Shown here: piece after piece, positions 30,110 through 62,542 of the stretch
Layout: every line of letters begins with the position of its first letter
How positions within the stretch are numbered: position 1 is the stretch's first letter
From: an uncultured Methanosarcinales archaeon
GTDB taxonomy: Archaea > Nanobdellota > Nanobdellia > Woesearchaeales > GW2011-AR9
Assembly (NCBI GenBank): GCA_964360675.1
Contig: CAYHXT010000001.1
Span: forward strand, 10,491 to 74,490
Length of the DNA: 64,000 bases
Direction: 5' to 3'
Made by a program: the position numbers and the translations under genes
The notes under the pieces: generated by a model
Database searches by the model: none
Seen by the model: only the letters and a program-made list of their open reading frames with translations
What the model was told of the DNA's origin: nothing

Positions 30110-30230
30110 GAGTGGACAGCTTACCGGGGTTCCCGCACACTAATGCAGTAAAGCCCAGTACGGAGACGCGCTTAACTTCGGAGTTCGAAATGGGATCCGG
30201 TGAACCACGCCCCTATGACCGTCCATATGC
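30110..30230 (-). rRNA. rrf: 5S ribosomal RNA (orphan copy)
   Basis: The reverse complement reads ATGGACGGTCATAGGGGCGTGGTTCACCGGATCCCATTTCGAACTCCGAAGTTAAGCGCGTCTCCGTACTGGG...GGGAACCCCGGTAAGCTGTCCA. It contains the universal CCCAT(T/A)CCGAAC..GAAGTTAAGC loop B/C core. Helix I ends pair (TGGACGG / CTGTCCA). Confidence 0.7.
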
Positions 30231-30311: not shown

Positions 30312-32099
30312 ATGGTGGTTCTGGATACGGCAATTATTCTGGCGGGCGGGTTAGGAGCCAGACTCAGGCCTCTTACAGAAGCAATCCCCAAACCTTTAGT
30401 TCCGGTTCACGGAAAACCTATCCTTGAACATACCATCAAACAGCTTTCCAAACACGGCGTTAAGAACATTATCATTTCTGTTGGATATAAAGCTCAACAA
30501 ATCATGGAATGTTTTGGCGATGGTTCAAGATGGAAGCTTAAAATATCTTATATTGTGGAATTAGAACCTTTGGGTACCGGCGGCGCAGTTAAAAAAGCAG
30601 CGTTGGGATTACAAAAACCTTTCCTGTTGGTTTGGGGGGATAATCTGATGGATATCAATTATTCTCAGATGAAGAAAGAGTTCTATGAAAATAATGCTTC
30701 CATCATGATGGCGCTCACGCACCGGGAAGATGTAGAAAATTTCGGGGTGGCCAAATTAGATAAAAATAAAATTGCGGCTTTCATAGAAAAGCCAAAACGG
30801 GAAGATGCTCCCTCCACTTTTATCAATGCAGGAGCTTTTGTCTTGGATCCTTCCTGCCTGAGAATTCTACCTGAAGGCAAGTCTTCTATTGAAAAGGATT
30901 GTTTTGAAAAGCTGGCTTTGCTGGGAGAGATATTTGCATTCATCCACAAGGGGCAATGGTTCCCTACCGATACGCTGGAAAAGTATCATCATGCCAACGC
31001 TTATTTTCAGCCAGATATCAATCTAAAAGAAAAAAAGGTAATCATTGCCGACGTGGACGACACTATCTGCGAAACCTGCCAGCAGATTTCTGCAGAGATG
31101 GCTGAACAAATCTCGCGCATGATCAAAAATGGATATGAATTTGCCTTTATCAGCGGAACTAAAATAGATGATCTGCAAAAAATGATATCTTCAAGGGTAA
31201 AAGGCAAACATCATCTTCTGGCTACAACCGGAACCAATTATGCCGTAGTGGAGGATGATAAAGCGGAAGTAAAATATGCTCTTCTTTTCTCAGAAGAAGA
31301 AAAAAAAGAAATCCTGCTTGCATTTGAGAAATTAATATCTCATTTTAATATAAATTCTGTTACCACCAAAGAAGATCAGCTGCAGGACAGAGGTTCGCAA
31401 ATCACTCTTTCTGCCATCGGCCGAAACGCGCCGTTGGAATTGAAACAGAAATACGACCCCGATGCCTCAAAGAGGAAAACATGGGTTGAATTTCTAACGT
31501 GGCATCTGGATGAAACCAAATACGATATAAACATCGGCGGAACTACGTCCATAGACGTGACGCGCGGCGGGTCGGATAAAGAGCAGGGCATAAGAAAGTT
31601 CGCTGAGCACAATGCCTTTCCGCTGGACAGCATTCTCTTTATAGGAGATAAAATCTTTCCCGGAGGAAACGATTTTCCGGCAACTAAAATAGTTGATTGT
31701 ATTTCCGTTAAATCTCCGTATTATACCCTCAAGGAATTGCGGAAACTAGAAATTATGAACGAGATTATAACTGTGGAAAAACCATGGGGAAATTTTGAAC
31801 GATTTACCTGCAATGGCCCTTCTACAGTGAAAATATTGGAAATCGAACCGAATAATCGGCTTTCATTACAATCTCATCGGCATCGCGATGAGTTATGGGT
31901 GGCGCTCGATGAGGGGGCAGTCGCAGAAATAGATGGCTTGAAATTCCCCCTTAATCGCGGCGGAAAAATAGTTGTGCTTAGGGGCACGAAACATCGCATT
32001 TATTCTGCCAACGAGAAAGTAAGGGTGTTAGAGATATCTTTTGGTATTTTTAACGAAGATGATATAATAAGATATGAAGATGATTTCGGAAGAATTTAA
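30312..32099 (+). CDS. tri-domain fusion: mannose-1-phosphate guanylyltransferase-like NTP-transferase + eukaryotic-type (HAD-IIB) phosphomannomutase + C-terminal cupin (type II PMI-like)
   Basis: Residues 1-230: VLDTAIILAGGLGARLRPLTEAIPKPL. Residues 235-455: VIIADVDDTICE (DxD HAD motif I), TSIDVTRGGSDK and FPGGNDFP, which parallel eukaryotic PMM FDVFPEGWDK / SPGGNDFE. Residues 470-595: WGNFERF...SLQSHRHRDELW cupin. Confidence 0.65.
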   Translation: MVVLDTAIILAGGLGARLRPLTEAIPKPLVPVHGKPILEHTIKQLSKHGVKNIIISVGYKAQQIMECFGDGSRWKLKISYIVELEPLGTGGAVKKAALGLQKPFLLVWGDNLMDINYSQMKKEFYENNASIMMALTHREDVENFGVAKLDKNKIAAFIEKPKREDAPSTFINAGAFVLDPSCLRILPEGKSSIEKDCFEKLALLGEIFAFIHKGQWFPTDTLEKYHHANAYFQPDINLKEKKVIIADVDDTICETCQQISAEMAEQISRMIKNGYEFAFISGTKIDDLQKMISSRVKGKHHLLATTGTNYAVVEDDKAEVKYALLFSEEEKKEILLAFEKLISHFNINSVTTKEDQLQDRGSQITLSAIGRNAPLELKQKYDPDASKRKTWVEFLTWHLDETKYDINIGGTTSIDVTRGGSDKEQGIRKFAEHNAFPLDSILFIGDKIFPGGNDFPATKIVDCISVKSPYYTLKELRKLEIMNEIITVEKPWGNFERFTCNGPSTVKILEIEPNNRLSLQSHRHRDELWVALDEGAVAEIDGLKFPLNRGGKIVVLRGTKHRIYSANEKVRVLEISFGIFNEDDIIRYEDDFGRI

Positions 32100-35691: not shown

Positions 35692-36135
35692 ATGAAAGAA
35701 ATTGAGAACGTGGAGTACAAAGGCAGGACTTTGGCCGTAGTTGTGCGGGCTCATGCCCTGCGCGAGCTTAAATCAGCAGGAAATAAAGTTTCCTTTGCCA
35801 CTCCAGAACACTTCCCCCTTCAAATGGGCATTCACGCCAGACTTAAAGGTGACATAGTTTCTGCCCACTTCCACAGGCCTTTTCAGGAGCTGAAAAATCT
35901 GCCAGTTCAAGAGTTTTTTCATGTTAAATCTGGAAAAGTCAAGATAGAATTATATGATGAGCGGGAAAATGATGCAAAAGTGTCGGAAATTATTGCTGAA
36001 GATGGCGACATGTTAATCTTAAACACCGGACACGGGATGACTTTTTTAGAAGATACTGAATTGGTGGAATTAAAGCAAGGGCCTTACAGAGGAAGAGAAG
36101 AAGAAAAAAGATTCGTTGGCGGGGTAAAAAAATGA
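35692..36135 (+). CDS. WxcM-like cupin (FdtA-type NDP-4-keto-6-deoxyhexose 3,4-ketoisomerase candidate)
   Basis: 147 aa single cupin barrel (HxH-like SAHFHRP, FHVKSGKVKIELYD) located directly upstream of a DegT aminotransferase. Confidence 0.5.
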   Translation: MKEIENVEYKGRTLAVVVRAHALRELKSAGNKVSFATPEHFPLQMGIHARLKGDIVSAHFHRPFQELKNLPVQEFFHVKSGKVKIELYDERENDAKVSEIIAEDGDMLILNTGHGMTFLEDTELVELKQGPYRGREEEKRFVGGVKK

Positions 36136-45837: not shown

Positions 45838-46950
45838 TTAGAATCGCTTTAATAATCTTTTCAATCCGGATTTTTTCCTGCCGGAATTTTCTTTCTGGGC
45901 ATCTCTTACTACATTTCTGGAAATCACGTCCATCTCGTGAGGAAAATTCGGGGCATCCCACGGAACAATCTTACCTTCTTTATACAACTGCCAGCGGCGT
46001 AAATCTTCTTCAACCATGATTTTAACCAACTGCTTGAATGTTACCGACGGCTTCCAGCCAAAGGCTTTCTGCGCTTTAGAAGGATTACCGCAGAGTTGAT
46101 GTACGTCTAAAGGCCTTTTCAGCTTTTTATCGGTAATCACATATTTTCTCCAATCTAATCCTGCTGCGGCAAAAGCTTCTTCCACAAATTCGCGCACGGA
46201 ATGAGTTTCTCCCGTAGCAATAACAAAATCATCGGGTTTTTGCTGCTGCATCATCATCCACATGACCTTTACATATTCTGGTGCGAAGCCCCAATCGCGT
46301 TTAGCATCAAGATTTCCTAATCTAAGTTCTTTCTGCATGCCCAACTTTATTTTGGCTACCGAGTTGGTGATTTTTCTGGTGACAAATTCCAATCCGCGCA
46401 AAGGACTTTCGTGATTGAATAAAATGCCGTTGCAGGCAAAAATACCATACGATCGACGATAAATGCGGACCATATGATAGGAATGGAGTTTTGCAGCCGC
46501 ATACGGAGAATTGGGAATCATCTTGGTATCCTCATCTTGCGGGCTGACGGTATTTGCGCCATACAATTCGCTGGTCGAAGCCTGATAGAATTTAATGTTT
46601 CGGTTGAAATGCCTGATTATCTCCAGGAAACGGGTGGTGCCGCTGGCATCTACTTCCGTAGTCAGCAGGGGAAAGTCAAAAGAGTTTCCTACAAAGCTCT
46701 GCGCAGCTAAATTATAGATTTCATGGGGATCAGAGATGGCAACTGCTTCAAGCAAAGAAGATGTGTCAGATAGGTCTGCAGGGATTAGAGTAACTTTATC
46801 CAGAATCTCGAGATGCTGCAGGCGCCAGAAATTAGGGGTGGATACTCTTCTGTAAGTGCCGAATACCTTATAGCCCTTGCTGAGAAGGAGTTTTGCCAAG
46901 TATGGGCCGTCCTGCCCGGTGATTCCGGTTATAAGCGCTCTTTTCATCAT
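45838..46950 (-). CDS. gmd: GDP-mannose 4,6-dehydratase
   Basis: ALITGITGQDGPYLAKLLLSKGYKVFGTYRR and YAAAKLHSY motifs. Start placed at the internal MMKRALITG. Confidence 0.8.
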   Translation of the reverse strand: MMKRALITGITGQDGPYLAKLLLSKGYKVFGTYRRVSTPNFWRLQHLEILDKVTLIPADLSDTSSLLEAVAISDPHEIYNLAAQSFVGNSFDFPLLTTEVDASGTTRFLEIIRHFNRNIKFYQASTSELYGANTVSPQDEDTKMIPNSPYAAAKLHSYHMVRIYRRSYGIFACNGILFNHESPLRGLEFVTRKITNSVAKIKLGMQKELRLGNLDAKRDWGFAPEYVKVMWMMMQQQKPDDFVIATGETHSVREFVEEAFAAAGLDWRKYVITDKKLKRPLDVHQLCGNPSKAQKAFGWKPSVTFKQLVKIMVEEDLRRWQLYKEGKIVPWDAPNFPHEMDVISRNVVRDAQKENSGRKKSGLKRLLKRF

Positions 46951-47005
46951 ATTGGCTGCATTGCGCAAGTTTAAAAATATTTCTAAAGATGGTTCTATCT
47001 ATCCC

Positions 47006-51204: not shown

Positions 51205-52290
51205 ATGAAATTGATGACTATAGGTCCGACGGAAATCGAAAAAGAGATCCTGGAGTTGGGAAAAAACCCGATGGTGTACAATAGAACTTCTGAATTTTGC
51301 AGTGTAATCAAAGAAATTGATGGAAATTTAAAATATGTTTTCAATACAAAAAATCAGGTATTTATATTAACTTGTTCTGGAACTGGAGCTATGGAAGCTG
51401 CAATTGTTAATACGCTTTCCAGAAATGATGAAGTAGTAATCGCCAATAATGGTGTATTTGGGCAAAGGTGGGTAGAAATCTGTAATAATTATGGCTTAAA
51501 TGTTAAAGAGATCAAAGGGACATTTGGTCAAACCATAGATCCGGAAAAAATAAGATTAGTTATAACTGAGGATACAAAAGCAGTGATTATAACTGCCAAT
51601 GAAACTTCATCTGGCACAGTTTCAGATGTACAAAGAATAGGTGAAGTAGTTAAAAAAACAAATTCCCTACTTATTGTCGATGCAATTTCAGATTTGTGTT
51701 GCGATGAATTTAAGACCGACGAATGGCATTGTGATGTAGTTGTAGTCAGCAGCAATAAAGGATTAGCAATACCACCGGGGTTAGCGTTCATTACCTTCAG
51801 TGAAAAAGCATGGAAAAGTGTAAATAATTCAAACTTACCAAAATATTATTTTGATATCAAAACCTATCAAAAAAATCAAATAAGGGGGCATACCCCATTT
51901 ACTCCACCTATAGGGACATTGTTTCAACTCCAAAGACGGCTCCAAATATACAAAGAAGAGGGTCTTGAAAAGATACTTGATAAAAATAAAAGACTCTCTA
52001 AGCTACTAAGAGAAGGCGTTAAGAAACTAAACCTAAAGCTAGCTTCTGACAGCCCATCTAATGGTGTTACGGCAATCTCCTGTCCTGAAGGAATAGATGC
52101 TAAAGAAATAGTGGCGGCTTTAAGAGAAAAATATAAAATTGAGGTGGCCCCTAGTTCGCTACCGTACGATCATTCCATATTTAAAGTTGGTGTGTTAGGA
52201 GATATCCAGGAACAAGATGTAATAGATCTGTTAAGCGCTTTAGGCGAAATATTAAACCAATTACAAGCTAATATAAACATAATTAAATGA
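51205..52290 (+). CDS. class V PLP-dependent aminotransferase (AGXT/PhnW-like)
   Basis: 361 aa. MKLMTIGPTEI N-terminus and SSNKGLAIPPGLAF (PLP-lysine region) typical of class V. Confidence 0.55.
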   Translation: MKLMTIGPTEIEKEILELGKNPMVYNRTSEFCSVIKEIDGNLKYVFNTKNQVFILTCSGTGAMEAAIVNTLSRNDEVVIANNGVFGQRWVEICNNYGLNVKEIKGTFGQTIDPEKIRLVITEDTKAVIITANETSSGTVSDVQRIGEVVKKTNSLLIVDAISDLCCDEFKTDEWHCDVVVVSSNKGLAIPPGLAFITFSEKAWKSVNNSNLPKYYFDIKTYQKNQIRGHTPFTPPIGTLFQLQRRLQIYKEEGLEKILDKNKRLSKLLREGVKKLNLKLASDSPSNGVTAISCPEGIDAKEIVAALREKYKIEVAPSSLPYDHSIFKVGVLGDIQEQDVIDLLSALGEILNQLQANINIIK

Positions 52291-52336
52291 CTAGTTGAAG
52301 TGGTTTTATAATTTATGTTGATAAAAAGAGATTACT

Positions 52337-53161
52337 ATGGGGAAATGTATGAATAAACCAATCAAATTAATATTAACTAAAAAATTATTGGAATTATGCA
52401 ATTGTAAACCCAGTTATAGTATTTATGCTCTTCTTCCAGAGATAAATGGGGGTGATTATTTTTATGAAGTTGATTCTCACTCTTTATTATCGCTCCCAAG
52501 AAATATAGAATTGGTAAAAAGCATATTTTCTCTGCAGACAAATGGAAGTAAATATGGTTCTAATCAACATCAATATACGGCAGAATTTAAAGAAGGTCTC
52601 CTGAACCAGCTTTCACAACATAAAGTGTGGCTGGGAGAAAAAGAATTAGAAATCAAAGGAGACGATAAAGTCAGTATAACTTTAAGCTTATTATTCAGTT
52701 CTTACCTGGATTGTTTCGTAAAACCAGTTCAGTTTTATATCCCGATGTCTTCCAGTTGCGCAGGACAATGGGATCTATGGGACAAACAGGATTATTTTTT
52801 ATTTTTGAAAAATATAATGGACAAAGATAAACCTCATAAATTAATAGATAAATTATCTAAAAATATGATCTGGAAAACTAAGTTTAAACCTGAAGATTTC
52901 AATTTGGCAGTAAGAAAAGCACTCCTAAAAAGAGAGATGTTTGATAAAGACCTTGAACCCGAGGCGATGATCAAAGCGATAATCATCAGGACGGGAGAGT
53001 TAAGCAATCCGAGAGTAGGTTATGAGACTATCGATTATGTAATGAGGACATTGTTTGTTAATTTAAAAGTGGATAAATATTTAAGAGTGGATAGAGAGAT
53101 AGAATTTTTGAAGAGACTTGAAAAAACAATAAAAGAAGAAATATTAAATTGTTTACAATAA
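52337..53161 (+). CDS. hypothetical protein
   Basis: 274 aa ORF in an operon. No recognisable motif. Confidence 0.35.
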   Translation: MGKCMNKPIKLILTKKLLELCNCKPSYSIYALLPEINGGDYFYEVDSHSLLSLPRNIELVKSIFSLQTNGSKYGSNQHQYTAEFKEGLLNQLSQHKVWLGEKELEIKGDDKVSITLSLLFSSYLDCFVKPVQFYIPMSSSCAGQWDLWDKQDYFLFLKNIMDKDKPHKLIDKLSKNMIWKTKFKPEDFNLAVRKALLKREMFDKDLEPEAMIKAIIIRTGELSNPRVGYETIDYVMRTLFVNLKVDKYLRVDREIEFLKRLEKTIKEEILNCLQ

Positions 53162-53227
53162 TCTTCGGATAATCATAATTTTTACAATCATCATATATAA
53201 GCTTTTTGGCGAAACCTTTTAAAATGG

Positions 53228-54676
53228 GTGGAGTCTGTTCGGATTATGGAAAACACACCAAATATAAAACGGAGAATCGATAGGCCGCTTGTAAAGATTT
53301 CAACAGGAACTTACCCTAATAAATGGTATGGTTCATATGCAGCAAAAGTCGCTGAAGAATTAGGAGTTAAACCTATATCAATGGGTTATGGGGATCCGGC
53401 AGTGAATGCTGTTATCCCAGAAAACTTATTAGCTATATTTCAAAAACATCTTACTTTTCCAAATGCAGGAGCTTATTCCAACGACTTGGGTGAACCTTGT
53501 CTACGTAAGGCTTATGAAGATTTTATAATGAGGGATGAAGCTCTTGAATCAAAAATAAATTTAGTTGTAGGCACGGCCGGTGGTAGAAGTATCATCACTT
53601 CAACATTTAAAGCATCGACTAAACCTGGGGATGTCGTTTTAGTGCCTGATCCGGCCTGGAGCGGTTATGAAGCCTTAGCAAGAGATGCTAGAATAAATTT
53701 AGTAGATATATCTACTAATTCAGAAAATAATTTCGTTCCGACTAAACAAAGTATCGAAGCTGCCATTGAAAAAGCAGGAAGGATGTACCCGGACGGGGAA
53801 GTCAAATTAATGATTATCAATACGCCGCATAATCCTACCGGGACCGTCTATGATGAGAAGGATATCACTGACATTTTAGCAGCACTTAAAGAAAATCACA
53901 TCAAAGGATTAGTGGATTATACTTATAGATCAATCAAGGCCGAAGGTACAAGCATCCCGTCTGTCCATAAGATTGCTGAAAAATTGGCCGCAAAGGCTGG
54001 AGTTCCTTTAAGAGAATATACGGACAACTTAATTGCTATGCAAACTTTAGGTAAGGTCACTCTCACACCTGGCTTTAGGGTAGGTTATGTAATGTCAACC
54101 GATTTAGATTTTATTGGGAAATTCATGACGGAAAAACAAGCTAATGATTTAAGCGGTCACATATTCATTCAAACCGCATTTGCTGAATATCTTGGCAGTC
54201 AGGGGCAAAAAGATGATTTCGCAAAGACTGTAAAACAATTTGAAGAAAGGCGGGCTTATTTATTGGAACAATTAAGCTGTTTTAATTATAGCCCTGAGCA
54301 AGGAAACGTCGTAGCTAATCCAGTAGGCTTTTATCTGACTTTTGAAGTGCCGAAAAGATTCAAAGAAGAAAAGGTGCCTTTAAGAGATGTTTCTGAACTA
54401 TTTAGCAGGTATCCTTTCATCAGGCAGACTGTTTCTGAGGATGAATATACAAAATTGTTTGAAAGTAGAGGCTATATTCCCGCTTCAGAGTTATTCGCTT
54501 TAGAATTGGTCGATAAATCTGCAGTAGCTGTATGCCCGGGACACCTATTTACCAAAGAATCAAACAAAGAAAATGGTTACGAAAATTGGTGCAGGGTAGC
54601 ATTAATACAGCCGGTCCAGAAATTATGGGAGATGTTTTATCGTTTAAAAGACCATAATAACATTTTACAATACTGA
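53228..54676 (+). CDS. class I/II PLP-dependent aminotransferase
   Basis: IINTPHNPTGTVYDE (N-P-x-N-P-T-G signature). 482 aa. Confidence 0.65.
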   Translation: MESVRIMENTPNIKRRIDRPLVKISTGTYPNKWYGSYAAKVAEELGVKPISMGYGDPAVNAVIPENLLAIFQKHLTFPNAGAYSNDLGEPCLRKAYEDFIMRDEALESKINLVVGTAGGRSIITSTFKASTKPGDVVLVPDPAWSGYEALARDARINLVDISTNSENNFVPTKQSIEAAIEKAGRMYPDGEVKLMIINTPHNPTGTVYDEKDITDILAALKENHIKGLVDYTYRSIKAEGTSIPSVHKIAEKLAAKAGVPLREYTDNLIAMQTLGKVTLTPGFRVGYVMSTDLDFIGKFMTEKQANDLSGHIFIQTAFAEYLGSQGQKDDFAKTVKQFEERRAYLLEQLSCFNYSPEQGNVVANPVGFYLTFEVPKRFKEEKVPLRDVSELFSRYPFIRQTVSEDEYTKLFESRGYIPASELFALELVDKSAVAVCPGHLFTKESNKENGYENWCRVALIQPVQKLWEMFYRLKDHNNILQY

Positions 54677-54689
54677 TAAATGTGGCCTG

Positions 54690-55133
54690 ATGATGCAACA
54701 AGGAACAAAACCAGTGAAAAAGAGGGTAGTTTTTACCGCAGGAACCTGGGATTTGTTCCATGTCGGACATTTAAATCTGATAAAAAAATCCAAGGAACTC
54801 GGTGATTTTTTAATTGTCGCTGTGAGTACAGATGAATTAGTGGCTTCATATAAAAAAGGCCTTCTAGTAATCCCTTTCGATGAAAGAGTGGCAATACTTG
54901 AGTCCTGCAAGTATGTAGATAAAGTCATCAAACAAAGTTCTTTGATCGAACTAAAGCAACTTAAAGAATATGATCCAGACATCATCACCATCGGAGATGA
55001 CTGGAAAGGAAAGCAGTTAAGCAGTCTAGAATGGTTTAAGAATCAACCTAATAAGAAGGTGGTATATCTTCCTTATACGTCGCATGTCAGTTCTACAAAA
55101 ATAAAAGAAACAATAAGGAAATCTAATTTTTAA
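54690..55133 (+). CDS. cytidylyltransferase, TagD-like (glycerol-3-phosphate cytidylyltransferase family)
   Basis: VVFTAGTWDLFHVGHLNLIKK (HxGH). 147 aa. Confidence 0.7.
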   Translation: MMQQGTKPVKKRVVFTAGTWDLFHVGHLNLIKKSKELGDFLIVAVSTDELVASYKKGLLVIPFDERVAILESCKYVDKVIKQSSLIELKQLKEYDPDIITIGDDWKGKQLSSLEWFKNQPNKKVVYLPYTSHVSSTKIKETIRKSNF

Positions 55134-55172
55134 TTTTCTTCTAAAAGAGTACAAAATCACAAAGTTTATTAA

Positions 55173-56213
55173 ATGGTTCTTGAGAATCTAGCTATGGACT
55201 TTTTAAAAATTTCCTGCCCCATCTGCGGTTCTGATGAACATTCGTTAGTCTCCAACAAGGGCCAGTTCAATATCAAATTATATGCCTCGTTATGCAAACA
55301 ATGCGGATTGATGTATCTAAATCCAAGATGGTCTAAAAGTTCTTATGACCACTTTTATGCCAACCTTTATGACCACTTTTATAGGACTTCTAAATCTAAA
55401 AAAAATTTTCCGGAATTGTATTACGGTAAAATCAAACAGATCCACGGGAGGATGCTGAAAGAGGGCTTATTCCCTGCTAAAATAGAAAATGCGCTGGATA
55501 TAGGCAGCGGAGAAGGGTGGCCGCTGCTGTATCTTAAGGAAAATCATGAAAAAAGCGGGAAAAATACCCCTCTAAATCTTCATGCCATCGAACCTTCTTC
55601 ACGTTGTCTTAAAACTCTGAAAGAATTCGGAATAAATGTGATCTCTAACGATGTAGATTCTGATTGGCATAAAAAATATAAACATAAATTTGACTTCATA
55701 ATTATGAGGCATGTCCTAGAGCATTTCATGGATCCAGTCTCTGTGCTGAAAAAAGTATCTTCCTCATTAACAAAAGACGGTCTGGTGTATATCGCAGTGC
55801 CTAATTCGATGAATCCACAATTGCCGTTAAACAAGACTTTCTTCAGGGCAGTGCACACTTTTTATTTTTCCAGGATCTCTTTGCATAACGTAATAAATCT
55901 TTCAAATCTGGAGATTATGCACTTATCAGCGAGTCCTAAAGATAGTCCTCATGAGATATATGCCCTGTGCAGAAAGTCAAGAAAAGCGGTTCCTCCGGTA
56001 ATCCTAAATGATGAGTTTTTTTTACAGAAAGAAGTGTTATCTAATTCATATAAAAAAGAAAAATCATTTAAGTTTAAGATTGATAATTCCATAAATAATT
56101 TAAAGAACCATACTAAAAGAAGGATTATAAAATTAATCCCTTCCGGGATAAAAAAGAGCAGTTATTTAAAAAAGGCGATTGGAATTTATCATCGTACAAA
56201 AATTATTAATTAA
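55173..56213 (+). CDS. SAM methyltransferase with N-terminal zinc ribbon
   Basis: CPICGSDEH...CKQCG, then LDIGSGEGW. 346 aa. Confidence 0.55.
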   Translation: MVLENLAMDFLKISCPICGSDEHSLVSNKGQFNIKLYASLCKQCGLMYLNPRWSKSSYDHFYANLYDHFYRTSKSKKNFPELYYGKIKQIHGRMLKEGLFPAKIENALDIGSGEGWPLLYLKENHEKSGKNTPLNLHAIEPSSRCLKTLKEFGINVISNDVDSDWHKKYKHKFDFIIMRHVLEHFMDPVSVLKKVSSSLTKDGLVYIAVPNSMNPQLPLNKTFFRAVHTFYFSRISLHNVINLSNLEIMHLSASPKDSPHEIYALCRKSRKAVPPVILNDEFFLQKEVLSNSYKKEKSFKFKIDNSINNLKNHTKRRIIKLIPSGIKKSSYLKKAIGIYHRTKIIN

Positions 56214-56235
56214 TCAAGTGGTAAGGGAGAGCGTA

Positions 56236-58317
56236 ATGAAAAAAATAGTTTGTGTTATTCCTGCGAGAGGCGGTTCTAAAGGAATTCCGAGGAAGAATAT
56301 CAAATCATTAGCTGGAAAACCTTTGATAAGTTATAATATCTCGGCTTCTAAGAATTCCGGGCATATAATTGAAACTTATGTTTCTACCGACGATCAAGAA
56401 ATAGCTGAAATTTCCAGTAATTTTGGCGCGAAGATTATTGATAGGCCGAAGGAATTTGCGACAGATACCGCAAGCAGCGAATCAGCATTGCTACATTTCG
56501 CAGAAAATGTAGATTTTGATGTGCTGGTCTTCCTGCAATGCACTTCTCCATTGACCAAAACCGAGGATATCGATGGGGCGATTGAAAAATATCTTTTCGG
56601 AAATTATGATTCTGTTCTTTCTGTCTGTGAAGATAGAGGGGGATTTCTTTGCGGCGGTTTTACTTGGGATGAAGATGGAAATTCAGTGAATTACGACTTT
56701 AAGAATAGAAAGCGCCGACAGCAGAATAAAAGATTCTATCGTGAAAATGGGGCGATTTATGTATTCAGCAAAGAAGGATTATTAAAACACAAAAATCGGC
56801 TGCATGAGAAGGTGGGTCTTTACGTAATGCCTTCGTTAAGATCTTTCGAGATAGATGAACCTGAAGATTTTCTAACTATTGAAAAATTATTTACAATTGA
56901 CAAAAGGCAGGATAATGTTAACAATAATAATTTCCATATGATAAAGATGGTCATTTTTGACTGCGACGGGGTACTTACTGATGGTTCAGTATATATGGAT
57001 CCTGACGGAAAGGAAACTTTGAGGTTCTCAAGAATAGACGGCCATGGAATAGGCATGTTAAATAAAGCAGGGTACATACTGGGTATCATCAGTTCTGAAA
57101 ATTCCGAAATCATCCGAAAAAGGGCTGAAAAGTTGAATATATCCGAAGTGTTTTTAGGAATTAAAGATAAATTAAAAATATATCAAGAATTAAAGGACAA
57201 ATATAATCTAAAAGATGGGGAAATATGTTACTGCGGAGACGACCTTTCTGATATGGAGATATTAAAGAAAGTAGGCCTGTCCTGCTGTCCATCCAATTCT
57301 CAACCAGAAGTTAAAGAGATATGTACTTTTGTTTCAGAATACGAAGGAAGCAATGGTTTTGTAAGGCAAGTATCAAATCTTATTTTAAAGAGCATAAAAT
57401 CAAAAGAGATATTAAATAAAGGTGATAAAGAAAAAATGAAAACACTAAAAATAAATGATGTGGAAATCTCAAATGAAAGCAAGCCTTTTTTCATCGCTGA
57501 AATAGGCATCAATCATAATGGTTCGATGGATCTTGCAAAAAAAATGATTGATCTGGCAGTCATTACCGGCGTAAACGCAGTTAAGTTTCAAAAAAGAACG
57601 GTAGAACTATGTGTGCCGGACAACGTTAAAAATTCCATGCGAGAAACCCCTTGGGGAAAAATGACTTATTTTGATTACAAAAAGAAAATTGAATTTGAAG
57701 AAGAAGAATACAAAGAAATAGACCGTTATTGCAAGGAGAAAGGAATACTTTGGACCGCTTCTGTCTGGGATATACCCAGCCTTGAGTTTATCGAAAGATT
57801 CAACGTGGCTTTCCATAAAATACCTTCTGCGTTATTAACCCATAAAGATTTATTATTAAAAATCAAAGAAACTGGAAAACCAGTTATCCTTTCCACAGGC
57901 ATGAGCACTGAAGAGGAAGTCTTAAAAGCAGTATCTTTATTTGGGGAGAATTATCCTTTGGCGATATTACATTGTAATTCCGGCTATCCGGCTAAAGAAG
58001 AAGAACTTAATTTAAATTACATACTGAATTTAAAACAAATGTTCCCAAATAACATCATCGGTTATAGCGGACATGAGAGGGGAATCTCAGCCACTTTGGT
58101 TGCTGCTACGCTTGGCGCAAAGATATTAGAAAGGCATATAACTTTAGATAGGTCTATGTGGGGCACTGATCAGGCCGCATCTATCGAATTCGATGGATTA
58201 AGGAGATTAGTAAGGGATTTAAATAGTTTAAATATCTGGTTTGGAAACGGAATTAAAACCGTAACAGAAACCGAAAAAACAGTTAGAGATAAATTAAGAA
58301 ATGTCAACACATTGTGA
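56236..58317 (+). CDS. tri-domain fusion: CMP-nonulosonate cytidylyltransferase (NeuA-like) + HAD-IIIA phosphatase (KdsC-like) + nonulosonic acid synthase (NeuB-like)
   Basis: MKKIVCVIPARGGSKGIPRKNIKSLAGKPLI (NeuA/KdsB motif). MVIFDCDGVLTDG and a later GDDLSD (HAD motifs). FFIAEIGINHNGSMDLAKKMID (NeuB N-terminus). AGGGAG SD upstream of the chosen ATG. Confidence 0.7.
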   Translation: MKKIVCVIPARGGSKGIPRKNIKSLAGKPLISYNISASKNSGHIIETYVSTDDQEIAEISSNFGAKIIDRPKEFATDTASSESALLHFAENVDFDVLVFLQCTSPLTKTEDIDGAIEKYLFGNYDSVLSVCEDRGGFLCGGFTWDEDGNSVNYDFKNRKRRQQNKRFYRENGAIYVFSKEGLLKHKNRLHEKVGLYVMPSLRSFEIDEPEDFLTIEKLFTIDKRQDNVNNNNFHMIKMVIFDCDGVLTDGSVYMDPDGKETLRFSRIDGHGIGMLNKAGYILGIISSENSEIIRKRAEKLNISEVFLGIKDKLKIYQELKDKYNLKDGEICYCGDDLSDMEILKKVGLSCCPSNSQPEVKEICTFVSEYEGSNGFVRQVSNLILKSIKSKEILNKGDKEKMKTLKINDVEISNESKPFFIAEIGINHNGSMDLAKKMIDLAVITGVNAVKFQKRTVELCVPDNVKNSMRETPWGKMTYFDYKKKIEFEEEEYKEIDRYCKEKGILWTASVWDIPSLEFIERFNVAFHKIPSALLTHKDLLLKIKETGKPVILSTGMSTEEEVLKAVSLFGENYPLAILHCNSGYPAKEEELNLNYILNLKQMFPNNIIGYSGHERGISATLVAATLGAKILERHITLDRSMWGTDQAASIEFDGLRRLVRDLNSLNIWFGNGIKTVTETEKTVRDKLRNVNTL

Positions 58318-59873
58318 GGTTTTTAAGAAAAATGATAAAAGAAGCAGATTTGTCTAATTTTAAGGTATTGATGTTATACCCTAATCAGCGTACAGTTAGT
58401 TTGGTTCCTCCTTCATTAGCTTTGTTCTCAAGCTTGTTAAAAGAGAGAAATGCTGAAGTAAAGCTGTTTGATACTACTTTTTATCGAATGGACTGTGAAG
58501 ATTCAGACAAAGCACGTGAGAAAAATCTGACAGTACATCCGGTAAATGAGGCTTCTTTAGTAATCGAATATCATAATGGAAATGTATTTGAAGACTTATG
58601 TAAAGTTGTAGAAGATTTCCGCCCAAATATAATCTTGGCAACAGCTACAGACAGCACTTTTCCTTTGGCTTTAGATCTATTCAAAGCAGTACAGAAATAT
58701 AAATCTCAATATCATTTTTTAACATTATTGGGTGGTGTTTTTGCTACCTTCGCTCCGGAAAGAAGCATAAGTTATCCTGAAATAGACATTATCTGCGTCG
58801 GTGAAGGAGAAGGTCCGCTCATAGATCTCTGCGATCGTCTGTGCAAAGGCGAATCATACGACGATATCCCTAATATCTGGTTGAAAACTAAAGAGGGAAC
58901 AATAGTAAAAAATAAAGTCCGGCCTCCAGCAGATATCAGTGAATTGCCTTCACCAGACTTCAGCATATTTGATGAGAAGAGGCTTTACAGGATGATGGGG
59001 GGTAAAGTGTATAAAATGCTGCCTATAGAGACCCATAGGGGCTGCCCTTATATGTGCACCTACTGCGGCTCTCCTACTCAAAATCGTTTTTATCTGGAAC
59101 AGACCAGCTCTAAATTTTATCGTGAAAAATCACTACGGGAAGTAAAGGAAGACTTATTGTTTCAAATTAAAAAATGGAAACCGACATACATTTTCTTTTG
59201 GGCAGATACTTTCTTAGCCTATAGCGAGGAAAAGATAGATGAATTCTGTGAATTCTATTCTAAAATCAAAATCCCTTTTTATTGCCAGGCAAGACCTGAG
59301 ACGATTACTGAATCTAAAATCATAAAATTGAAAGCCGTAGGCCTTGATCGTGTAGGCGTAGGCATAGAGCATGGCAACGAGCAGTATAGAAGCACCGTGC
59401 TTAAGAGGTATTACAAGAATTCGCAGGTCATAGAATGCATGGAGATTGTAAGAAAGCATGGCATAAGTTTCAGCCTTAATAACATTATCGGTCTTCCCGA
59501 TGAAACTCCGGAACTGGCCATGGATACTGTTGAACTTAACCGAAGCATAAAAGGTTTTGAAGATTCAAGCTGTTCTATCTTCCAGCCTTATTACGGCACC
59601 CCTTTAAGGGCTTTATGTGTGGAGAAAGGATATATCAGTCCCGACTTAATATGTCCGCATAACGCATCAGACTCTCTGTTGAACATGCCTAGTTTTCCTA
59701 AAGAAAGAATCTCCGGTTTAGCAAGAACTTTCAGCTTATATATCCGGCTACCAAAAGATAGATGGGATGAGATAAAAGTAGCTGAAAAATTCACGGAAGA
59801 AGGAAATGCGATGTTTGAAAAATTATCCCAAGAAGTCATAGAGAAGTTCTTTGTTCCGGAAAGCGATCTGTGA
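58314..59873 (+). CDS. B12-binding radical SAM enzyme (third paralog)
   Basis: RGCPYMCTYCGS CxxxCxxC motif after a B12-like N-domain. 519 aa. Confidence 0.75.
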   Translation: MRFLRKMIKEADLSNFKVLMLYPNQRTVSLVPPSLALFSSLLKERNAEVKLFDTTFYRMDCEDSDKAREKNLTVHPVNEASLVIEYHNGNVFEDLCKVVEDFRPNIILATATDSTFPLALDLFKAVQKYKSQYHFLTLLGGVFATFAPERSISYPEIDIICVGEGEGPLIDLCDRLCKGESYDDIPNIWLKTKEGTIVKNKVRPPADISELPSPDFSIFDEKRLYRMMGGKVYKMLPIETHRGCPYMCTYCGSPTQNRFYLEQTSSKFYREKSLREVKEDLLFQIKKWKPTYIFFWADTFLAYSEEKIDEFCEFYSKIKIPFYCQARPETITESKIIKLKAVGLDRVGVGIEHGNEQYRSTVLKRYYKNSQVIECMEIVRKHGISFSLNNIIGLPDETPELAMDTVELNRSIKGFEDSSCSIFQPYYGTPLRALCVEKGYISPDLICPHNASDSLLNMPSFPKERISGLARTFSLYIRLPKDRWDEIKVAEKFTEEGNAMFEKLSQEVIEKFFVPESDL

Positions 59874-60982: not shown

Positions 60983-62542
60983 CTATCTTAATGATTTTTT
61001 GATGATATTATAAATCCTTTTATGGCCATTTCCATCCACTTTATAAAAGTTATCTTTGACATATTTATCTCTGCGGGCCTTATTTGATTTGAGGTTGAAA
61101 CCTTCTAAGAAGCGGCTAATCTTATCTAAAATTTGGCTTGTATCAATAAGGTATAAAGAGATTTCCTTGTTTATGTATCTGGCACCACCCCAGTCTTGTT
61201 GGTTGATGTTGTTAAATAAATCCAATAGTATTATCGGTTTATTAAGTATGGTGGCAGCGCATAAAGTTGTTGAATAGATGCCAATCACTAAATCAGCCTG
61301 ATCAATCAGTTCATAAGTATCGGCCTCTTTTTGGATATCGACCCGCCCATTGTCTTTTAAAAAATAGATATAACCTTCTTTATCTTCCAGAGGATGCAAT
61401 TTAATTGTTTTTTTAGATTCCTCAAATAAGCTGAATATTCTAGACAAATGTTCCATAAATAACTCTTTCTGCTCGGCGTTCCATATATTTAACTCTAAAA
61501 ACGGCTGGGTCAATACTAAAATGTTTTTAACCTCTTTTATGCTCTTAAGTTGGGATTTTTTATATTTCAACAGATCATCAAACATCAAAGGACCAGTGAC
61601 TTGTATTTTCTCTTTATCACATCCTAATTCAATCAAGTTCTTTTTATATCTCTCTCCGAAAACTAATATATTGGTGGAATATAATTCCATAGAGAGAACT
61701 CCTTCTCCTATCCCGTGCTGTATGTAATATACCAAGAGATGGTTGTTTTTAGCGATGGCTATAGCGCATCTTTCAGCAAGGCTATTGACTGCCGTAAGCA
61801 CAATTGCCTTAATATCACGTTCTTTGACTATCTTTTTCAGAAGTTCATAATAAAGAACGAGAAGATACAGAAATTCTTTTGAGAAATAAAAATCGAGGGG
61901 ATGCTTAAAATAAGACCAAGCCGATTTGCCGCCGATAGTTATTAATTCCTGTTTGTGCTCTTCGGATAATTGTTTCCACTTATAAAATAATTCTCTTGAA
62001 CTATTTTTTGCCTTCTCATGAATAGCAGTATCATAATAATTGTAAATATTATTCTTATCTTTAATCAGGTCATAGGTGTTTTTAGACAGAGGATCAACAA
62101 ATAAGACAAAATCATTAAAGCCGGCATCATCCTTAAAATCATCGATCAAATTCTGGAGACGGTCAATTTTCCATTCTTTAGAAAGATGGTTGGTATAAGT
62201 TATGAACATGACATTGTTTTCTTTACTCAAACTAGCCTCGCTTGAAGTTCTTTTCCTGATTTTGTTTTTCTCGTTTAAAAGAAGATATTTGGCCATCAAT
62301 TTGGCAGTCAGCGATAACTTCTTTTGTTCGTACAGCCCTAATGGCTTATCCTCTTTAAAATTCTTATAAGTGTTTATCTTTGCTGGAAGGACATGTTCAG
62401 CTAAGAATCTTTCCAAGAACCACCACAGCGGTGTACCTTCTATCTGAAACAGTTCATCAAAACTATTTCCTCCAATGATCTTCTTTTTTGACCAGTTATC
62501 CGATGATAGATCCAATAGATTCATTTTATAAGCTTCCCCCAA
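60983..62542 (-). CDS. TagF-like CDP-alditol phosphotransferase candidate (Glyphos_transf-like C-domain)
   Basis: ILVLTQPFLE (compare TagF ILYAPTFRE) and DLVIGIYSTTLCAATILNKPIILLD (compare the TagF D-YSS...L.KP.I motif). 519 aa. Confidence 0.4.
   Translation of the reverse strand: MGEAYKMNLLDLSSDNWSKKKIIGGNSFDELFQIEGTPLWWFLERFLAEHVLPAKINTYKNFKEDKPLGLYEQKKLSLTAKLMAKYLLLNEKNKIRKRTSSEASLSKENNVMFITYTNHLSKEWKIDRLQNLIDDFKDDAGFNDFVLFVDPLSKNTYDLIKDKNNIYNYYDTAIHEKAKNSSRELFYKWKQLSEEHKQELITIGGKSAWSYFKHPLDFYFSKEFLYLLVLYYELLKKIVKERDIKAIVLTAVNSLAERCAIAIAKNNHLLVYYIQHGIGEGVLSMELYSTNILVFGERYKKNLIELGCDKEKIQVTGPLMFDDLLKYKKSQLKSIKEVKNILVLTQPFLELNIWNAEQKELFMEHLSRIFSLFEESKKTIKLHPLEDKEGYIYFLKDNGRVDIQKEADTYELIDQADLVIGIYSTTLCAATILNKPIILLDLFNNINQQDWGGARYINKEISLYLIDTSQILDKISRFLEGFNLKSNKARRDKYVKDNFYKVDGNGHKRIYNIIKKSLR

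Follow-up and report, generated by a model that had tools for sequence, protein, structure and literature searches.

The 64,000-nt stretch of DNA that was analysed (the window) carries a gene whose product joins a NeuA-type cytidylyltransferase, a KdsC-like HAD phosphatase and a NeuB-type synthase in a single polypeptide. The genes and features on which the following discussion draws are:

30312..32099, + strand, fused mannose-1-P guanylyltransferase/phosphomannomutase/mannose-6-P isomerase, 595 aa (Pfam NTP_transferase, PMM/Hydrolase_3, MannoseP_isomer)
51205..55133, + strand, four genes: class V aminotransferase, unknown protein of 274 aa, class I/II aminotransferase, TagD-like cytidylyltransferase (Pfam, NCBIfam)
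55173..56213, + strand, SAM-dependent methyltransferase, 346 aa, immediately 5′ of the fusion (Pfam Methyltransf_23)
56224..56229, + strand, Shine-Dalgarno (SD)-like AGGGAG, 6 nt 5′ of the ATG at 56236 (read from the sequence)
56236..58317, + strand, complete NeuA-HAD-NeuB fusion CDS, 693 aa, stop codon 58315-58317 (ORF list, domain scans)
56236..56919, + strand, domain 1, NeuA-type CMP-nonulosonate synthetase, aa 1-228 (Pfam CTP_transf_3)
56935..57405, + strand, domain 2, KdsC/YrbI-type HAD-IIIA phosphatase, aa 234-390 (TIGR01670)
57097-57099, 57121-57123 and 57130-57132, + strand, HAD sugar-binding triad E288, R296 and K299 (alignment to BT1713)
57385..57435, + strand, Lys-rich linker LKSIKSKEILNKGDKEK, aa 384-400, a former stop/intergenic region (collinearity with the unfused operons L093 and L094)
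57436..58314, + strand, domain 3, SAF-less NeuB-type PEP-aldose(-phosphate) condensing synthase, aa 401-693 (Pfam NeuB)
58332..59873, + strand, B12-binding radical SAM enzyme, 513 aa from its ATG (Pfam B12-binding and Radical_SAM)
60983..62542, - strand, GT-B-like protein, 519 aa (weak NCBIfam matches)

The open reading frame of the fusion runs without interruption from 56179 to 58317 (+), and the 693 residues are counted from the ATG at 56236, the start also chosen by public gene callers; the gene on its 5′ side ends with its stop at 56213. A scan for operon promoters and terminators, which does not cover archaeal promoters, returned counts near the shuffled expectation. The three domain assignments of a preliminary description of this DNA were borne out by Pfam, NCBIfam and PDB searches, which agree with one another, and the motifs it had pointed out (VIPARGGSKGIPRKN, FDCDGVLTDG, GDDLSD and AEIGINHNGS) are all present. 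It had also proposed a domain scan; with Pfam, this found CTP_transf_3, HAD/Hydrolase_3 and NeuB (PF03102), and the predicted structure displays three confident folds with a mean pLDDT of 87.6. The protein thus consists of three domains of established identity, each with intact catalytic residues.

The N-terminal domain matches CTP_transf_3 at aa 5-224 (E 2.6e-27, 96.5 bits versus a Pfam cutoff of 22.6) and harbors the P-loop PARGGSKGIPRKN together with LQCTSP, RRQ...NGAIY and EIDEPED. When aligned to 1eyr, 6ifd and 9t4z, it exhibits the motifs of CMP-nonulosonate synthetases, i.e. the P-loop PARGGSKG-x-P-x-KN, LQ-x-TSP and the Asp-rich metal motif. Its predicted fold superimposes on solved structures with TM scores of 0.81-0.86, with pLDDT mostly above 90. 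A KdsB match of this domain, or an SpsE-only match of the C-terminal one, had been named beforehand as the outcomes that would speak against the nonulosonate reading; neither was found. The NeuA enzymes in the PDB reach 79-127 bits against 41 for KdsB, and the NCBIfam KdsB models score 27-56 bits (cutoffs 155-281) while covering only about aa 2-120. The PseF equivalog cutoff is missed as well (120 vs 205.7 bits). The best solved match is the P. parvum CMP-Kdn synthetase 9t4z (40.5%, 132 bits), tied with the V. cholerae CMP-Neu5Ac synthetase (38.7%, 131 bits), and the domain was hence dismissed as a discriminator between Kdn and Neu5Ac.

The central domain matches HAD/Hydrolase_3 at approximately aa 236-385 (Pfam), passes the NCBIfam cutoff of TIGR01670, the YrbI/KdsC subfamily (141 vs 106.95 bits), and has a predicted fold with TM scores of 0.85-0.91 to YrbI structures. 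Its catalytic residues comprise the nucleophile motif D242/D244, K312 of motif III and D336/D339 of motif IV. In an alignment without gaps, E288/R296/K299 correspond to E56/R64/K67 of BT1713 (3e81). Kdo-8-P phosphatases carry G/R/A (4hgn), R/R/S (3mn1) or R/R/E (2p9j) at these positions. Glu56 and Lys67* are said to have been proposed by Lu and colleagues in 2009 as markers of Kdn-9-P phosphatases. The E/R/K triad recurs in 189 of 193 family members, among them each of the 8 triple fusions of full length, and the triad and the five catalytic residues are each at least 90% conserved across the family. The domain misses the cutoffs of both NF058599 (Kdn-9-P phosphatase of the BT1713 type; 131.4 vs 180 bits) and NF007019 (KdsC, Kdo-8-P phosphatase; 130.8 vs 208 bits), with marker residues that differ from the latter. 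To judge by its residues, the HAD domain is like a Kdn-9-P phosphatase, though it stays below the threshold of the curated family.

The C-terminal domain aligns over the entire NeuB profile (PF03102, positions 1-241 of 241) at aa 437-674 (E 1.1e-72, 244.8 bits vs a cutoff of 22.1), and its predicted fold matches 1xuu, 1vli and 6ncs. Mapping on 1xuu, the N. meningitidis NeuB (NmNeuB), revealed that the metal/PEP residues E25, K53, Q55, K129, S132 and S154 are kept as E422, K450, Q452, K528, S531 and S553, and that Y186, S213, H215, E234, H236 and D247 are kept as Y584, S611, H613, E632, H634 and D645. Three positions are replaced (L533 for E134, S582 for N184 and W511 for F112); both the E134 and the N184 position are occupied by Ser in the P. 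parvum enzyme, which is active. In addition, the domain carries a K453-R454 dyad. It falls short of the cutoffs of TIGR03586 (PseI; 179 vs 340.25 bits) and TIGR03569 (NeuB/NnaB; 243.5 vs 399.65 bits), the latter being matched only at positions 2-275 of 329. Pfam found no SAF domain (PF08666) in the fusion protein, which ends 8 residues past the point aligned to NmNeuB residue 287, with the next gene following immediately. The C-terminal SAF domain, whose retention had been put forward as a point to check, is therefore absent. Its absence was rejected as a marker for phospho-sugar use, since BT1714-like synthases and NANS keep SAF and the P. parvum enzyme is without it.

A bootstrapped, distance-based neighbour-joining tree (computed in numpy, with a small reference set) separates the query clade, NANS, the BT1714-like synthases and the P. 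parvum enzyme from the free-sugar enzymes with 84% bootstrap support. Within the former assemblage, the query clade is distinct from every characterised group (79-83%), and its sister relations to NANS, BT1714-like and P. parvum synthases receive supports of 0-37%. Hence, the phylogeny that had been suggested for telling apart possible products places the domain with the phospho-sugar synthases but, as it lies in a clade of its own, names no sugar. Pairwise scores follow the same lines: among the characterised relatives, vertebrate NANS scores highest (36-41%, 179-210 bits) and shares GYSGHE with the domain, the BT1714-like synthases reach 163-182 bits, and NmNeuB, PseI and the Leptospira enzyme at most 139. 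A Lys after Gln55 (KFQK; K453) combined with G[ST]D[HQ] (here GTDQ) occurs in all 24 clade members, all 7 BT1714-like sequences, NANS and the P. parvum enzyme, compared with 0 of 4 sequences of the free-sugar type. This grouping with phospho-sugar rather than free-sugar NeuB/PseI synthases supports a phosphorylated route, as the preliminary description had anticipated by analogy with NANS/NANP; the BT1713-type triad of the HAD domain points in the same direction. From these sequence signatures, we infer that the fusion would use a phosphorylated substrate; for catalysis with Man-6-P or ManNAc-6-P in particular, the indirect hint is that the synthase is covalently joined to a HAD of the 9-phosphatase type. 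In 9 of 11 radical-SAM-linked loci with a NeuB of the query clade, no KdsC-like HAD gene lies nearby; therefore, some members of this clade may not depend on phospho-sugars.

A plausible sequence of events begins with the condensation of PEP and an aldohexose 6-phosphate into a nonulosonate 9-phosphate by the SAF-less NeuB domain. Then, the 9-phosphate would be stripped off by the central HAD domain, and the NeuA domain at the N-terminus would use CTP to turn the freed sugar into a CMP-activated donor. Conceivably, the adjacent B12-radical-SAM enzyme and the methyltransferase tailor the nonulosonate or its CMP derivative prior to transfer to a surface glycan. The trifunctional enzyme would thus represent a complete phosphorylated nonulosonate route, most likely to Kdn from mannose-6-P, to which we assign a probability of roughly 0.6. 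Kdn as the identity of the sugar is proposed on the basis of gene content. No homologue of NeuC, GNE, ManNAc kinase or NanE was detected among the scanned ORFs of at least 110 aa in the window, and no amino-sugar genes were found beside the actinobacterial homologues or beside L093, the closest unfused operon, which stands alone. As hexosamine-supplying genes were found in neither setting, mannose-6-P to Kdn is at least as likely a route as one from ManNAc-6-P, and the mannose-6-P isomerase domain encoded at 30312..32099 indicates that the glycan island itself provides a source of mannose-6-P.

The preliminary description had favored a phosphorylated hexosamine instead, i.e. conversion of ManNAc-6-P into CMP-Neu5Ac or a different sialic acid with an N-acyl group, with the animal NANS/NANP/CMAS route as the model. 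The top rank of NANS among the characterised relatives of the NeuB domain, the shared GYSGHE and the equal distance of the NeuA domain to CMP-Neu5Ac and CMP-Kdn synthetases all agree with such a route, and BT1713-type phosphatases also act on Neu5Ac-9-P. NANS itself makes both Neu5Ac-9-P and Kdn-9-P (PMC6200933, Table 2). The genomic evidence that had been adduced for a hexosamine does not hold, however. The UDP-GlcNAc 2-epimerase encoded in the window at 5248 lies 50 kb away and is a WecB of the non-hydrolysing type (412 bits) rather than a NeuC (76 bits vs a cutoff of 236). Of the two aminotransferases, the one at 51205 belongs to class V and the one at 53228 to class I/II; both are of the amino-acid type, not DegT/PseC-type sugar aminotransferases. 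Given also the gene inventories of the window, L093 and the actinobacterial loci, an N-acylated product appears unlikely.

It is improbable that the HAD domain serves as a non-catalytic oligomerisation scaffold, a role reported for the C-terminal KdsC-like domain of vertebrate CMP-sialic acid synthetase, next to a NeuB domain that uses an unphosphorylated sugar. The order NeuA-then-HAD is indeed that of vertebrate CMAS, whose structure 3ewi matches the HAD domain, and the many radical-SAM-linked loci without a KdsC-like HAD would fit as well; yet the conservation of the catalytic motifs and of E288/R296/K299 across the family, as well as the motifs and tree position of the NeuB domain, argue for a working phosphatase acting behind a phospho-sugar synthase. 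Similarly slim are the prospects of a sugar acid of other chain length or skeleton, for example, a Kdo-like octulosonate from arabinose-5-P or a product of heptose or another aldose phosphate. Such a product would be compatible with the YrbI/KdsC membership of the HAD domain, with the uncharacterised status of the NeuB clade, and with a split version of the pathway (L002) that adjoins genes for a SIS sugar-phosphate isomerase and a PfkB kinase. Against it stand the HAD residues of Kdn-9-P rather than Kdo-8-P type, the NeuA-like rather than KdsB-like N-domain and, for the Kdo-like variant, the fact that Ara-5-P is not a substrate of the P. parvum Kdn-9-P synthase (PMC6200933, Table 1). Finally, an artefact of assembly or sequencing, like a pseudogene, might be suspected from a single truncated database copy (P0001). 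Both can be dismissed because 13 contigs, assembled independently with several assemblers from several samples (coverage up to 21x), encode exactly this 693-aa protein, all catalytic residues are intact, a Nanoarchaeota MAG protein (P0002) with 79% identity spans the same domain junctions, and the contig of P0001 has only 1.8x coverage and differs from the window by 56 indels over 14 kb.

The route from mannose-6-P to CMP-Kdn proposed here would thus reside in a genuine fusion, the origin of which can be read from its junction. The linker, with pLDDT below 50 at residues 395-398 of the predicted structure, holds a relic SD-like GGTGAT (57421-57426), 9 nt before the codon of Met401, and both this junction DNA and the comparison with the unfused archaeal operons L093 and L094 (neuA-HAD, neuB) identify Met401 as the ancestral neuB start. 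These operons are collinear with the fusion at 59-67% identity, and in L093 neuA-HAD and neuB overlap as ATGA. Hence, the fusion arose by loss of the one stop codon between an overlapping neuA-HAD gene and its neuB neighbour. It is a simple joining of two neighbouring genes from a known kind of pathway. Among the best 150 matches from 1.84 billion cluster representatives, 1 was a full-length triple fusion. The additional fusion to NeuB had been believed to be rare and is so, albeit not unique: other organisms, chiefly Actinobacteria, also encode triple fusions of full length. No relevant account of a trifunctional enzyme of the NeuA-HAD-NeuB kind emerged from literature searches.

The radical SAM gene immediately downstream has an alternative GTG start at 58314 that would create a 4-nt overlap with the stop of the fusion gene, and its product reaches no NCBIfam equivalog. 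Relatives stand among NeuB, HAD and NeuA genes in all three sampled loci. A NeuA, NeuB or HAD homologue was found in 30 of 33 metagenome loci of the family (flanks of at least 8 kb), while generic glycan genes occur in 0-12 of the same 33. An rSAM-NeuB fusion protein (P0026) was judged a weak Rosetta-stone link, its radical SAM half being only 26% identical to that of the window. Judging by this genomic company, the radical SAM protein is a probable tailoring enzyme of the pathway, and the link of its family to NeuA/NeuB genes hints at an undescribed sugar modification; literature searches for a connection between radical SAM enzymes and nonulosonates returned nothing relevant.

Upstream, the methyltransferase has counterparts that adjoin NulO genes in L091, L096 and L098, and one more, in L097, that is fused to NeuA, which makes it a candidate O-methylase of the sugar. 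The four tightly spaced genes at 51205..55133, which run in the same direction as the fusion, possibly provide a substituent of the glycan; genes of the class V aminotransferase and TagD-like kinds recur in the syntenic locus L096. On the opposite strand, the GT-B-like protein resembles the BFO_1060-family glycosyltransferase (50 bits) and TIGR04396, a surface carbohydrate biosynthesis protein, both weakly and below cutoff, and has a counterpart in L091 (Glyphos_transf/Epimerase_2) with 24-25% identity. It is a candidate CMP-sugar transferase; a relationship to DUF6716 was rejected for want of BLAST similarity.

More tentatively, the fused enzyme might stand at the centre of a nonulosonate pathway that is widespread and as yet undescribed, and in which dedicated B12-radical-SAM chemistry and the methyltransferase lead to a new sialic-acid-like surface sugar in DPANN-like archaea and other uncultured lineages. 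This broader scenario, which we regard as conceivable yet the less probable outcome, envisages a radical SAM enzyme that is translationally coupled to the fusion and has as its substrate the nonulosonate, either as such or in CMP-linked form. Some B12-radical-SAM enzymes act on cytidylylated substrates, and C-methylation would, by analogy, be one possible chemistry.

If the prediction holds, one polypeptide of 693 aa makes an activated sialic-acid-like donor from PEP, CTP and a central metabolite, probably mannose-6-P. The fusion would then be a compact natural catalyst for CMP-Kdn-type sugars and provide genomic evidence for sialic-like surface sugars on tiny groundwater archaea. In addition, a large uncharacterised clade of SAF-less NeuB proteins gains a testable function, and two sequence signatures become available for annotating phosphorylated versus non-phosphorylated nonulosonate routes, namely the Lys/Arg dyad that follows Gln55 in the synthase and the E/R/K triad in the HAD domain. 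The steady partnership with a B12-radical-SAM enzyme points to sugar chemistry not yet described.

Compared with known systems, the fusion shares two folds and the chemistry of PEP condensation and CMP activation with the canonical NeuB/NeuA, PseI/PseF and LegI/LegF pairs. Canonical NeuB, PseI and LegI, however, use free sugars, need Arg314 of the SAF domain and involve no phosphatase step; the metal/PEP residues are common to both, yet the bootstrap split and the missed equivalog cutoffs set the query clade apart from these bacterial NulO enzymes. Vertebrate NANS/NANP/CMAS resemble the proposed route in having a phosphorylated substrate and product and in the NeuA-then-KdsC-like order of CMAS. 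However, NANS has an SAF/AFP domain (PF08666) and is not fused, and NANP is a different HAD. The HAD-like domain of vertebrate CMAS has been reported as inactive, whereas that of the fusion keeps every catalytic residue.

Closer in several respects is P. parvum, the Kdn-9-P synthase of which (312 aa) is SAF-less and strictly specific for Man-6-P (PMC6200933) and has KFQKR, S-x-W-D, SGH and GTD[HQ]AAS in common with the query; its CMP-Kdn synthetase provides the top solved-structure match to the NeuA domain. Nevertheless, this eukaryote employs separate proteins, has no dedicated phosphatase homologue, and its synthase is only 35% identical to the NeuB domain, its placement with the query clade being unsupported (37%). 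The same three steps via a 9-phosphate intermediate as proposed for the fusion make up the Kdn pathway of Bacteroides thetaiotaomicron, which, as far as it is recounted in PMC6200933, comprises the Kdn-9-P synthase BT1714, the Kdn-9-P phosphatase BT1713 and a CMP-Kdn synthetase (Wang et al. 2008). BT1713 has the E56/R64/K67 triad and BT1714 the [Q/T]-K-R dyad and G[ST]D[QH], and in virtually every locus of BT1713 orthologues (n=80; 63-76% identity among the matches listed) the gene for the synthase lies next to that for the phosphatase. In contrast to the fusion, these are separate proteins with only 34-38% identity to the query, and the BT1714-type synthases belong to another clade and keep an SAF-like C-terminal extension (median 348 aa).

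The same domain order is found in the uncharacterised NeuA-HAD-NeuB proteins of Actinobacteria, i.e. those of Sediminihabitans luteus (P0024) and Arthrobacter monumenti (P0027) as well as P0037, P0050 and P0121, which align with the query over their full length at 35-39% identity. Their genes neighbour DUF6716, GT2 and PF07388 polysialyltransferase-family genes, a context on which the Kdn reading also drew, and no radical SAM gene. In Streptomyces, an actinobacterium, a Kdn teichulosonic acid is the major wall glycopolymer (PMC7831098, PMC11481543). The actinobacterial triple fusions share the E/R/K triad and the SAF-less NeuB domain with the query, but form a separate clade with 100% support, whereas the NeuB domain of the query groups with non-triple architectures. 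Hence, the two kinds of fusion arose independently.

A single unbroken ORF (56179..58317, +) yields a 693-aa product from the ATG at 56236, a start that is supported by an SD-like AGGGAG 6 nt upstream (+), by the stop of the preceding gene at 56213 and by the public gene calls, which agree with it. The preliminary description had assigned three domains to this protein, NeuA, a phosphatase and NeuB, all of which were upheld by Pfam, NCBIfam and a search against solved structures.

Pfam domains of the fusion
Residues 5-224: CTP_transf_3, E 2.6e-27 (NeuA)
Residues ~236-385: HAD-type hydrolase models
Residues 437-674: NeuB PF03102, E 1.1e-72

An AlphaFold2 model computed from a 52-sequence family alignment (mean pLDDT 87.6) contains three well-folded domains, with disorder only in the linker at 395-398 and in an active-site loop (637-651); its low pTM of 0.49 is as expected for flexibly linked modules. 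In Foldseek comparisons, the NeuA part matched CMP-sialic or CMP-Kdn synthetases (TM 0.81-0.86), the HAD part YrbI/KdsC phosphatases (TM 0.85-0.91) and the third domain NeuB barrels; none of the solved chains matched covers more than one domain. The protein thus joins a synthase, a HAD of 9-phosphatase type and a CMP-transferase covalently, each of them with its catalytic apparatus intact.

The fusion proposed from the raw sequence is genuine, since the same 693-aa protein occurs with 100% identity on 13 contigs that derive from several samples and different assemblers, among them assemblies of Hainich groundwater well H52 with 21x coverage and four assemblies of Logan runs, and since P0002 from a Nanoarchaeota MAG (79% identical) spans both domain junctions. 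The only discordant record, P0001 (496 aa), stems from a 1.8x contig which shares 99.2% identity with the window but shows 56 gap openings in 14 kb and has nearly all its genes fragmented. It is this shortened call (L001, ENA ERZ1300416 NODE_1566) that represents the 90%-identity cluster of the fusion, so that architecture surveys based on cluster representatives would overlook the triple fusion.

A literature search yielded no description of the NeuA-HAD-NeuB architecture. Full-length proteins of the same order are P0018, P0024 (Sediminihabitans luteus), P0025, P0027 (Arthrobacter monumenti), P0037 and P0050, with 35-41% identity at 97-100% coverage. When the representatives of 1.84 billion 50% clusters were scanned exhaustively with HMMER, only one of the best 150 matches (P0121, 683 aa) was an end-to-end match, the remainder being NeuA-HAD, HAD-NeuB, NeuA-NeuB or free SAF-less NeuB proteins, i.e. 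lacking the C-terminal antifreeze-like domain of canonical NeuB. The architecture, which had been believed rare, is thus rare, yet not unique. When NeuB domains are placed in a neighbour-joining tree, the triple fusions of Actinobacteria make up a clade of their own with 100% support, apart from the query and P0002, which group with P0003 (NeuA-NeuB) and P0026 (a fusion of NeuB with a B12-binding radical SAM protein, rSAM). Hence, the archaeal and actinobacterial fusions arose independently.

The closest named homologues come from DPANN and Thermoplasmatales MAGs, the public records being Hainich groundwater assemblies, and the nearest relatives with two domains are NeuA-HAD proteins of archaea, about 385 aa long. 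One of them is encoded in a complete genome of Thermoplasmatales (L093); it shares 63% identity with query residues 3-383, and its gene overlaps, by ATGA, the gene of a separate 290-aa NeuB, which shares 63% identity with residues 404-693. For the equivalent pair of a Woesearchaeota MAG (L094), identity is 59% for NeuA-HAD and 67% for NeuB. The start Met of these free NeuB proteins falls on query Met401, and a Lys-rich linker of 17 residues (384-400) takes the place of the former stop and intergenic region. Hence, the fusion arose by loss of the stop codon between adjacent neuA-HAD and neuB genes. Within the fused reading frame, a relic SD-like GGTGAT (57421-57426) precedes the codon of Met401, the ancestral neuB start, by 9 nt; internal initiation there may provide free NeuB as well.

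Elsewhere, the pathway genes are reshuffled into differing fusions: rSAM-NeuB (L002 10001-12316, 771 aa, with a SIS isomerase and a PfkB kinase beside the pathway genes), NeuA-methyltransferase (L097 10124-11506, 460 aa), NeuB-cupin (L098 3970-5517, 515 aa) and NeuA-NeuB (L091 4773-6350, 525 aa, followed by a HAD gene).

The HAD domain scores above the curated YrbI/KdsC subfamily cutoff (141 vs 107 bits) and stays below those of the KdsC (131 vs 208) and Kdn-9-P phosphatase (131 vs 180) equivalogs. In an ungapped alignment with BT1713 (3e81), its E288, R296 and K299 occupy the positions of Glu56, Arg64* and Lys67*, which we take to be the sugar-binding determinants of this Kdn-9-P phosphatase and which were reportedly described by Lu et al. 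in 2009. In solved Kdo-8-P phosphatases, by contrast, position 56 is Gly or Arg, and position 67 is Ala, Ser or Glu. Of 193 HAD domains in the fused family, 189 have the triad, among them those of all 8 full-length triple fusions, and for the catalytic residues D242, D244, K312, D336 and D339 conservation in the family alignment is 90% or more. Together, these features predict a nonulosonate-9-phosphate phosphatase, which looks active.

In the NeuB domain, the metal-, PEP- and sugar-binding positions E25, K53, Q55, K129, S132, S154, Y186, S213, H215, E234, H236 and D247 (numbering of N. meningitidis NeuB, NmNeuB) are kept, with Glu134 replaced by Leu and Asn184 by Ser. The SAF domain, earlier singled out for checking, is missing and with it the essential Arg314 (Pfam, NCBIfam, NmNeuB mapping). 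SAF-less NeuB proteins, among them those of Streptomyces and Brevibacterium, have been noted before as an 'environmental' group without characterised members (PMC8208679), and the strictly Man-6-P-specific Kdn-9-P synthetase of P. parvum (312 aa; sequence from the supplement of PMC6200933) likewise lacks SAF. The BT1714-type references were taken from 79 loci with a synthase directly upstream of a BT1713 orthologue (median 348 aa, SAF-like tail), the others being source-named vertebrate NANS and the solved NmNeuB, C. jejuni PseI and Leptospira NeuB.

BLASTP of reference synthases against the query NeuB domain
Vertebrate NANS: 179-210 bits, 36-41% identity
BT1714-like: 163-182 bits, 34-38%
P. 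parvum Kdn-9-P synthetase: 139 bits, 35%
NmNeuB: 139 bits, 30.5%
Leptospira NeuB: 137 bits, 34%
PseI: 118 bits, 35%

In an unrooted tree, the query clade is separate (79-83% bootstrap) and is split off together with NANS, BT1714-like and P. parvum enzymes from the free-sugar enzymes with 84% support, the branching order among the phospho-sugar groups not being settled. The aligned motifs fit this grouping: Gln55 has a Lys as its next residue in 24/24 query-clade members, 7/7 BT1714-like synthases, the P. parvum enzyme and NANS (with Arg after this Lys in all phospho-sugar groups except NANS), vs none of four free-sugar-type sequences, and where canonical enzymes have GPD, the phospho-sugar groups have G[ST]D[HQ]. 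A GYSGHE motif is common to the query and NANS. SAF itself was rejected as a marker of substrate type, as it is retained in NANS and BT1714-like enzymes.

The fusion is the sixth of seven genes in a close-set co-directional series (51205-59873).

Gene 1, from 51205, +: class V aminotransferase
Gene 2, +: 274-aa protein without assignment
Gene 3, 53228, +: class I/II aminotransferase
Gene 4, +: TagD-like cytidylyltransferase
Gene 5, directly before the fusion, +: methyltransferase
Gene 6, 56236-58317, +: NeuA-HAD-NeuB fusion
Gene 7, 58332-59873, +: B12-binding radical SAM (rSAM)

The HAD residues and the synthase grouping point to a three-step phosphorylated route, as the preliminary description had proposed, at a probability of about 0.8; as a caveat, 9 of 11 rSAM-family metagenome loci with a query-clade NeuB have no KdsC-like HAD nearby. 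The activating domain is NeuA-like rather than KdsB-like (NCBIfam, solved structures). Its top sequence match among solved structures, 9t4z (132 bits), is the Kdn-specific CMP-Kdn synthetase of P. parvum (supplement sequence comparison, PDB title), practically tied with V. cholerae CMP-Neu5Ac synthetase (131 bits), so that this domain does not tell which sugar is made.

Kdn, formed from mannose-6-P as the presumed substrate, is narrowly favoured. The unfused L093 operon stands alone and must therefore use a common metabolite, a Man-6-P isomerase domain is encoded at 30312-32099 in the fusion's own glycan island, and the major wall glycopolymer of the actinobacterium Streptomyces is a Kdn-containing teichulosonic acid (PMC7831098, PMC11481543). 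Against certainty on Kdn, NANS, the best-scoring relative of the NeuB domain, makes Neu5Ac-9-P too (PMC6200933). The phosphorylated hexosamine suggested earlier did not stand: NeuC, GNE, ManNAc kinase and NanE are absent among the scanned window ORFs, and the epimerase at 5248, 50 kb from the fusion, is a WecB of the non-hydrolysing type, both of which count for Kdn. The aminotransferases at 51205 and 53228 are not of DegT/PseC type and lend no support to an amino-nonulosonate route.

Orthologues of the B. thetaiotaomicron Kdn-9-P phosphatase (63-76%) occur in Bacteroidota and beyond among the matches listed (L005-L084), almost always with a ~346-aa NeuB-like gene directly upstream, which suggests that the Kdn pathway extends far beyond the two cases characterised so far. 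In Actinobacteria, the triple fusions stand first in operons with GT2 and DUF6716, joined in Arthrobacter monumenti by a PF07388 alpha-2,8-polysialyltransferase-family gene, a setting that counts for Kdn as well. DUF6716 also lies beside NeuA/HAD/NeuB genes in actinobacterial and Woesearchaeota loci (L003 12248-16164, L094 7127-9004, L095 10308-14033) and is a candidate nonulosonate transferase or polymerase.

Further features were found in the 64-kb window.

9283-12168, +: TagD-like cytidylyltransferase, PPDK N-terminal ATP-grasp and PEP-utiliser mobile domain, 961 aa
13690-19298: sulfation module; 755-aa fusion of pyruvate-kinase barrel, PUA_2 domain and ATP-sulfurylase (an unusual joining of the two enzymes), then AAA_33 kinase, sulfotransferase and CysQ-like inositol-monophosphatase-family protein
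23913-25448, - and 25605-26894, -: two more B12-binding radical SAM genes (three in the island), adjoining a ferredoxin/PterinBD-DUF4346 protein (23294-23896)
30111-30226, -: solitary 5S rRNA gene (64.5 bits), with no 16S/23S rRNA or tRNA gene in the window
30312-32099, +: mannose-1-P guanylyltransferase, PMM-type HAD phosphomannomutase and mannose-6-P isomerase C-terminal domain, 595 aa; an entire GDP-mannose route in one protein and the island's second three-enzyme fusion
36132-38432, +: DegT/DnrJ-type sugar aminotransferase, 766 aa, split by an intein (Intein_splicing / HINT, residues 208-581)
40430-42673, +: sugar C-methyltransferase (Methyltransf_13/23/14) fused to a GDP-mannose-4,6-dehydratase-like domain, 747 aa; a separate GMD (45838-46968, -) and a nucleotidyltransferase nearby

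The rSAM gene starts with an ATG 14 nt downstream of the fusion stop, which an alternative GTG overlaps. Its product reached no curated family in an NCBIfam profile search and belongs to a large unnamed family. Around its closest relatives (52-69% identity), NeuB, KdsC-like HAD, NeuA and methyltransferase genes were present at all three sampled loci, L096, L097 and L098; L096 shows broad synteny with the window, and in L147 rSAM, NeuA-HAD and SAF-less NeuB are separate neighbouring genes. Among those 33 of the metagenome loci L099-L178 whose flanks measure at least 8 kb, 30 contain a NeuA (26), NeuB (15) or HAD (2) homologue, vs 0-8 for generic glycan genes of the window and 12 for DegT. Hence, the family is a specific companion of CMP-nonulosonate pathways, and it looks like a previously undescribed conserved partner.

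New chemistry is most likely to be hidden in this B12-radical-SAM enzyme, the recurrent partner, and the fused architecture in itself is of moderate interest. The fusion is built around an uncharacterised SAF-less synthase clade by joining of neighbouring genes and is best described as a one-polypeptide variant of the known Kdn/NANS-type three-step route.
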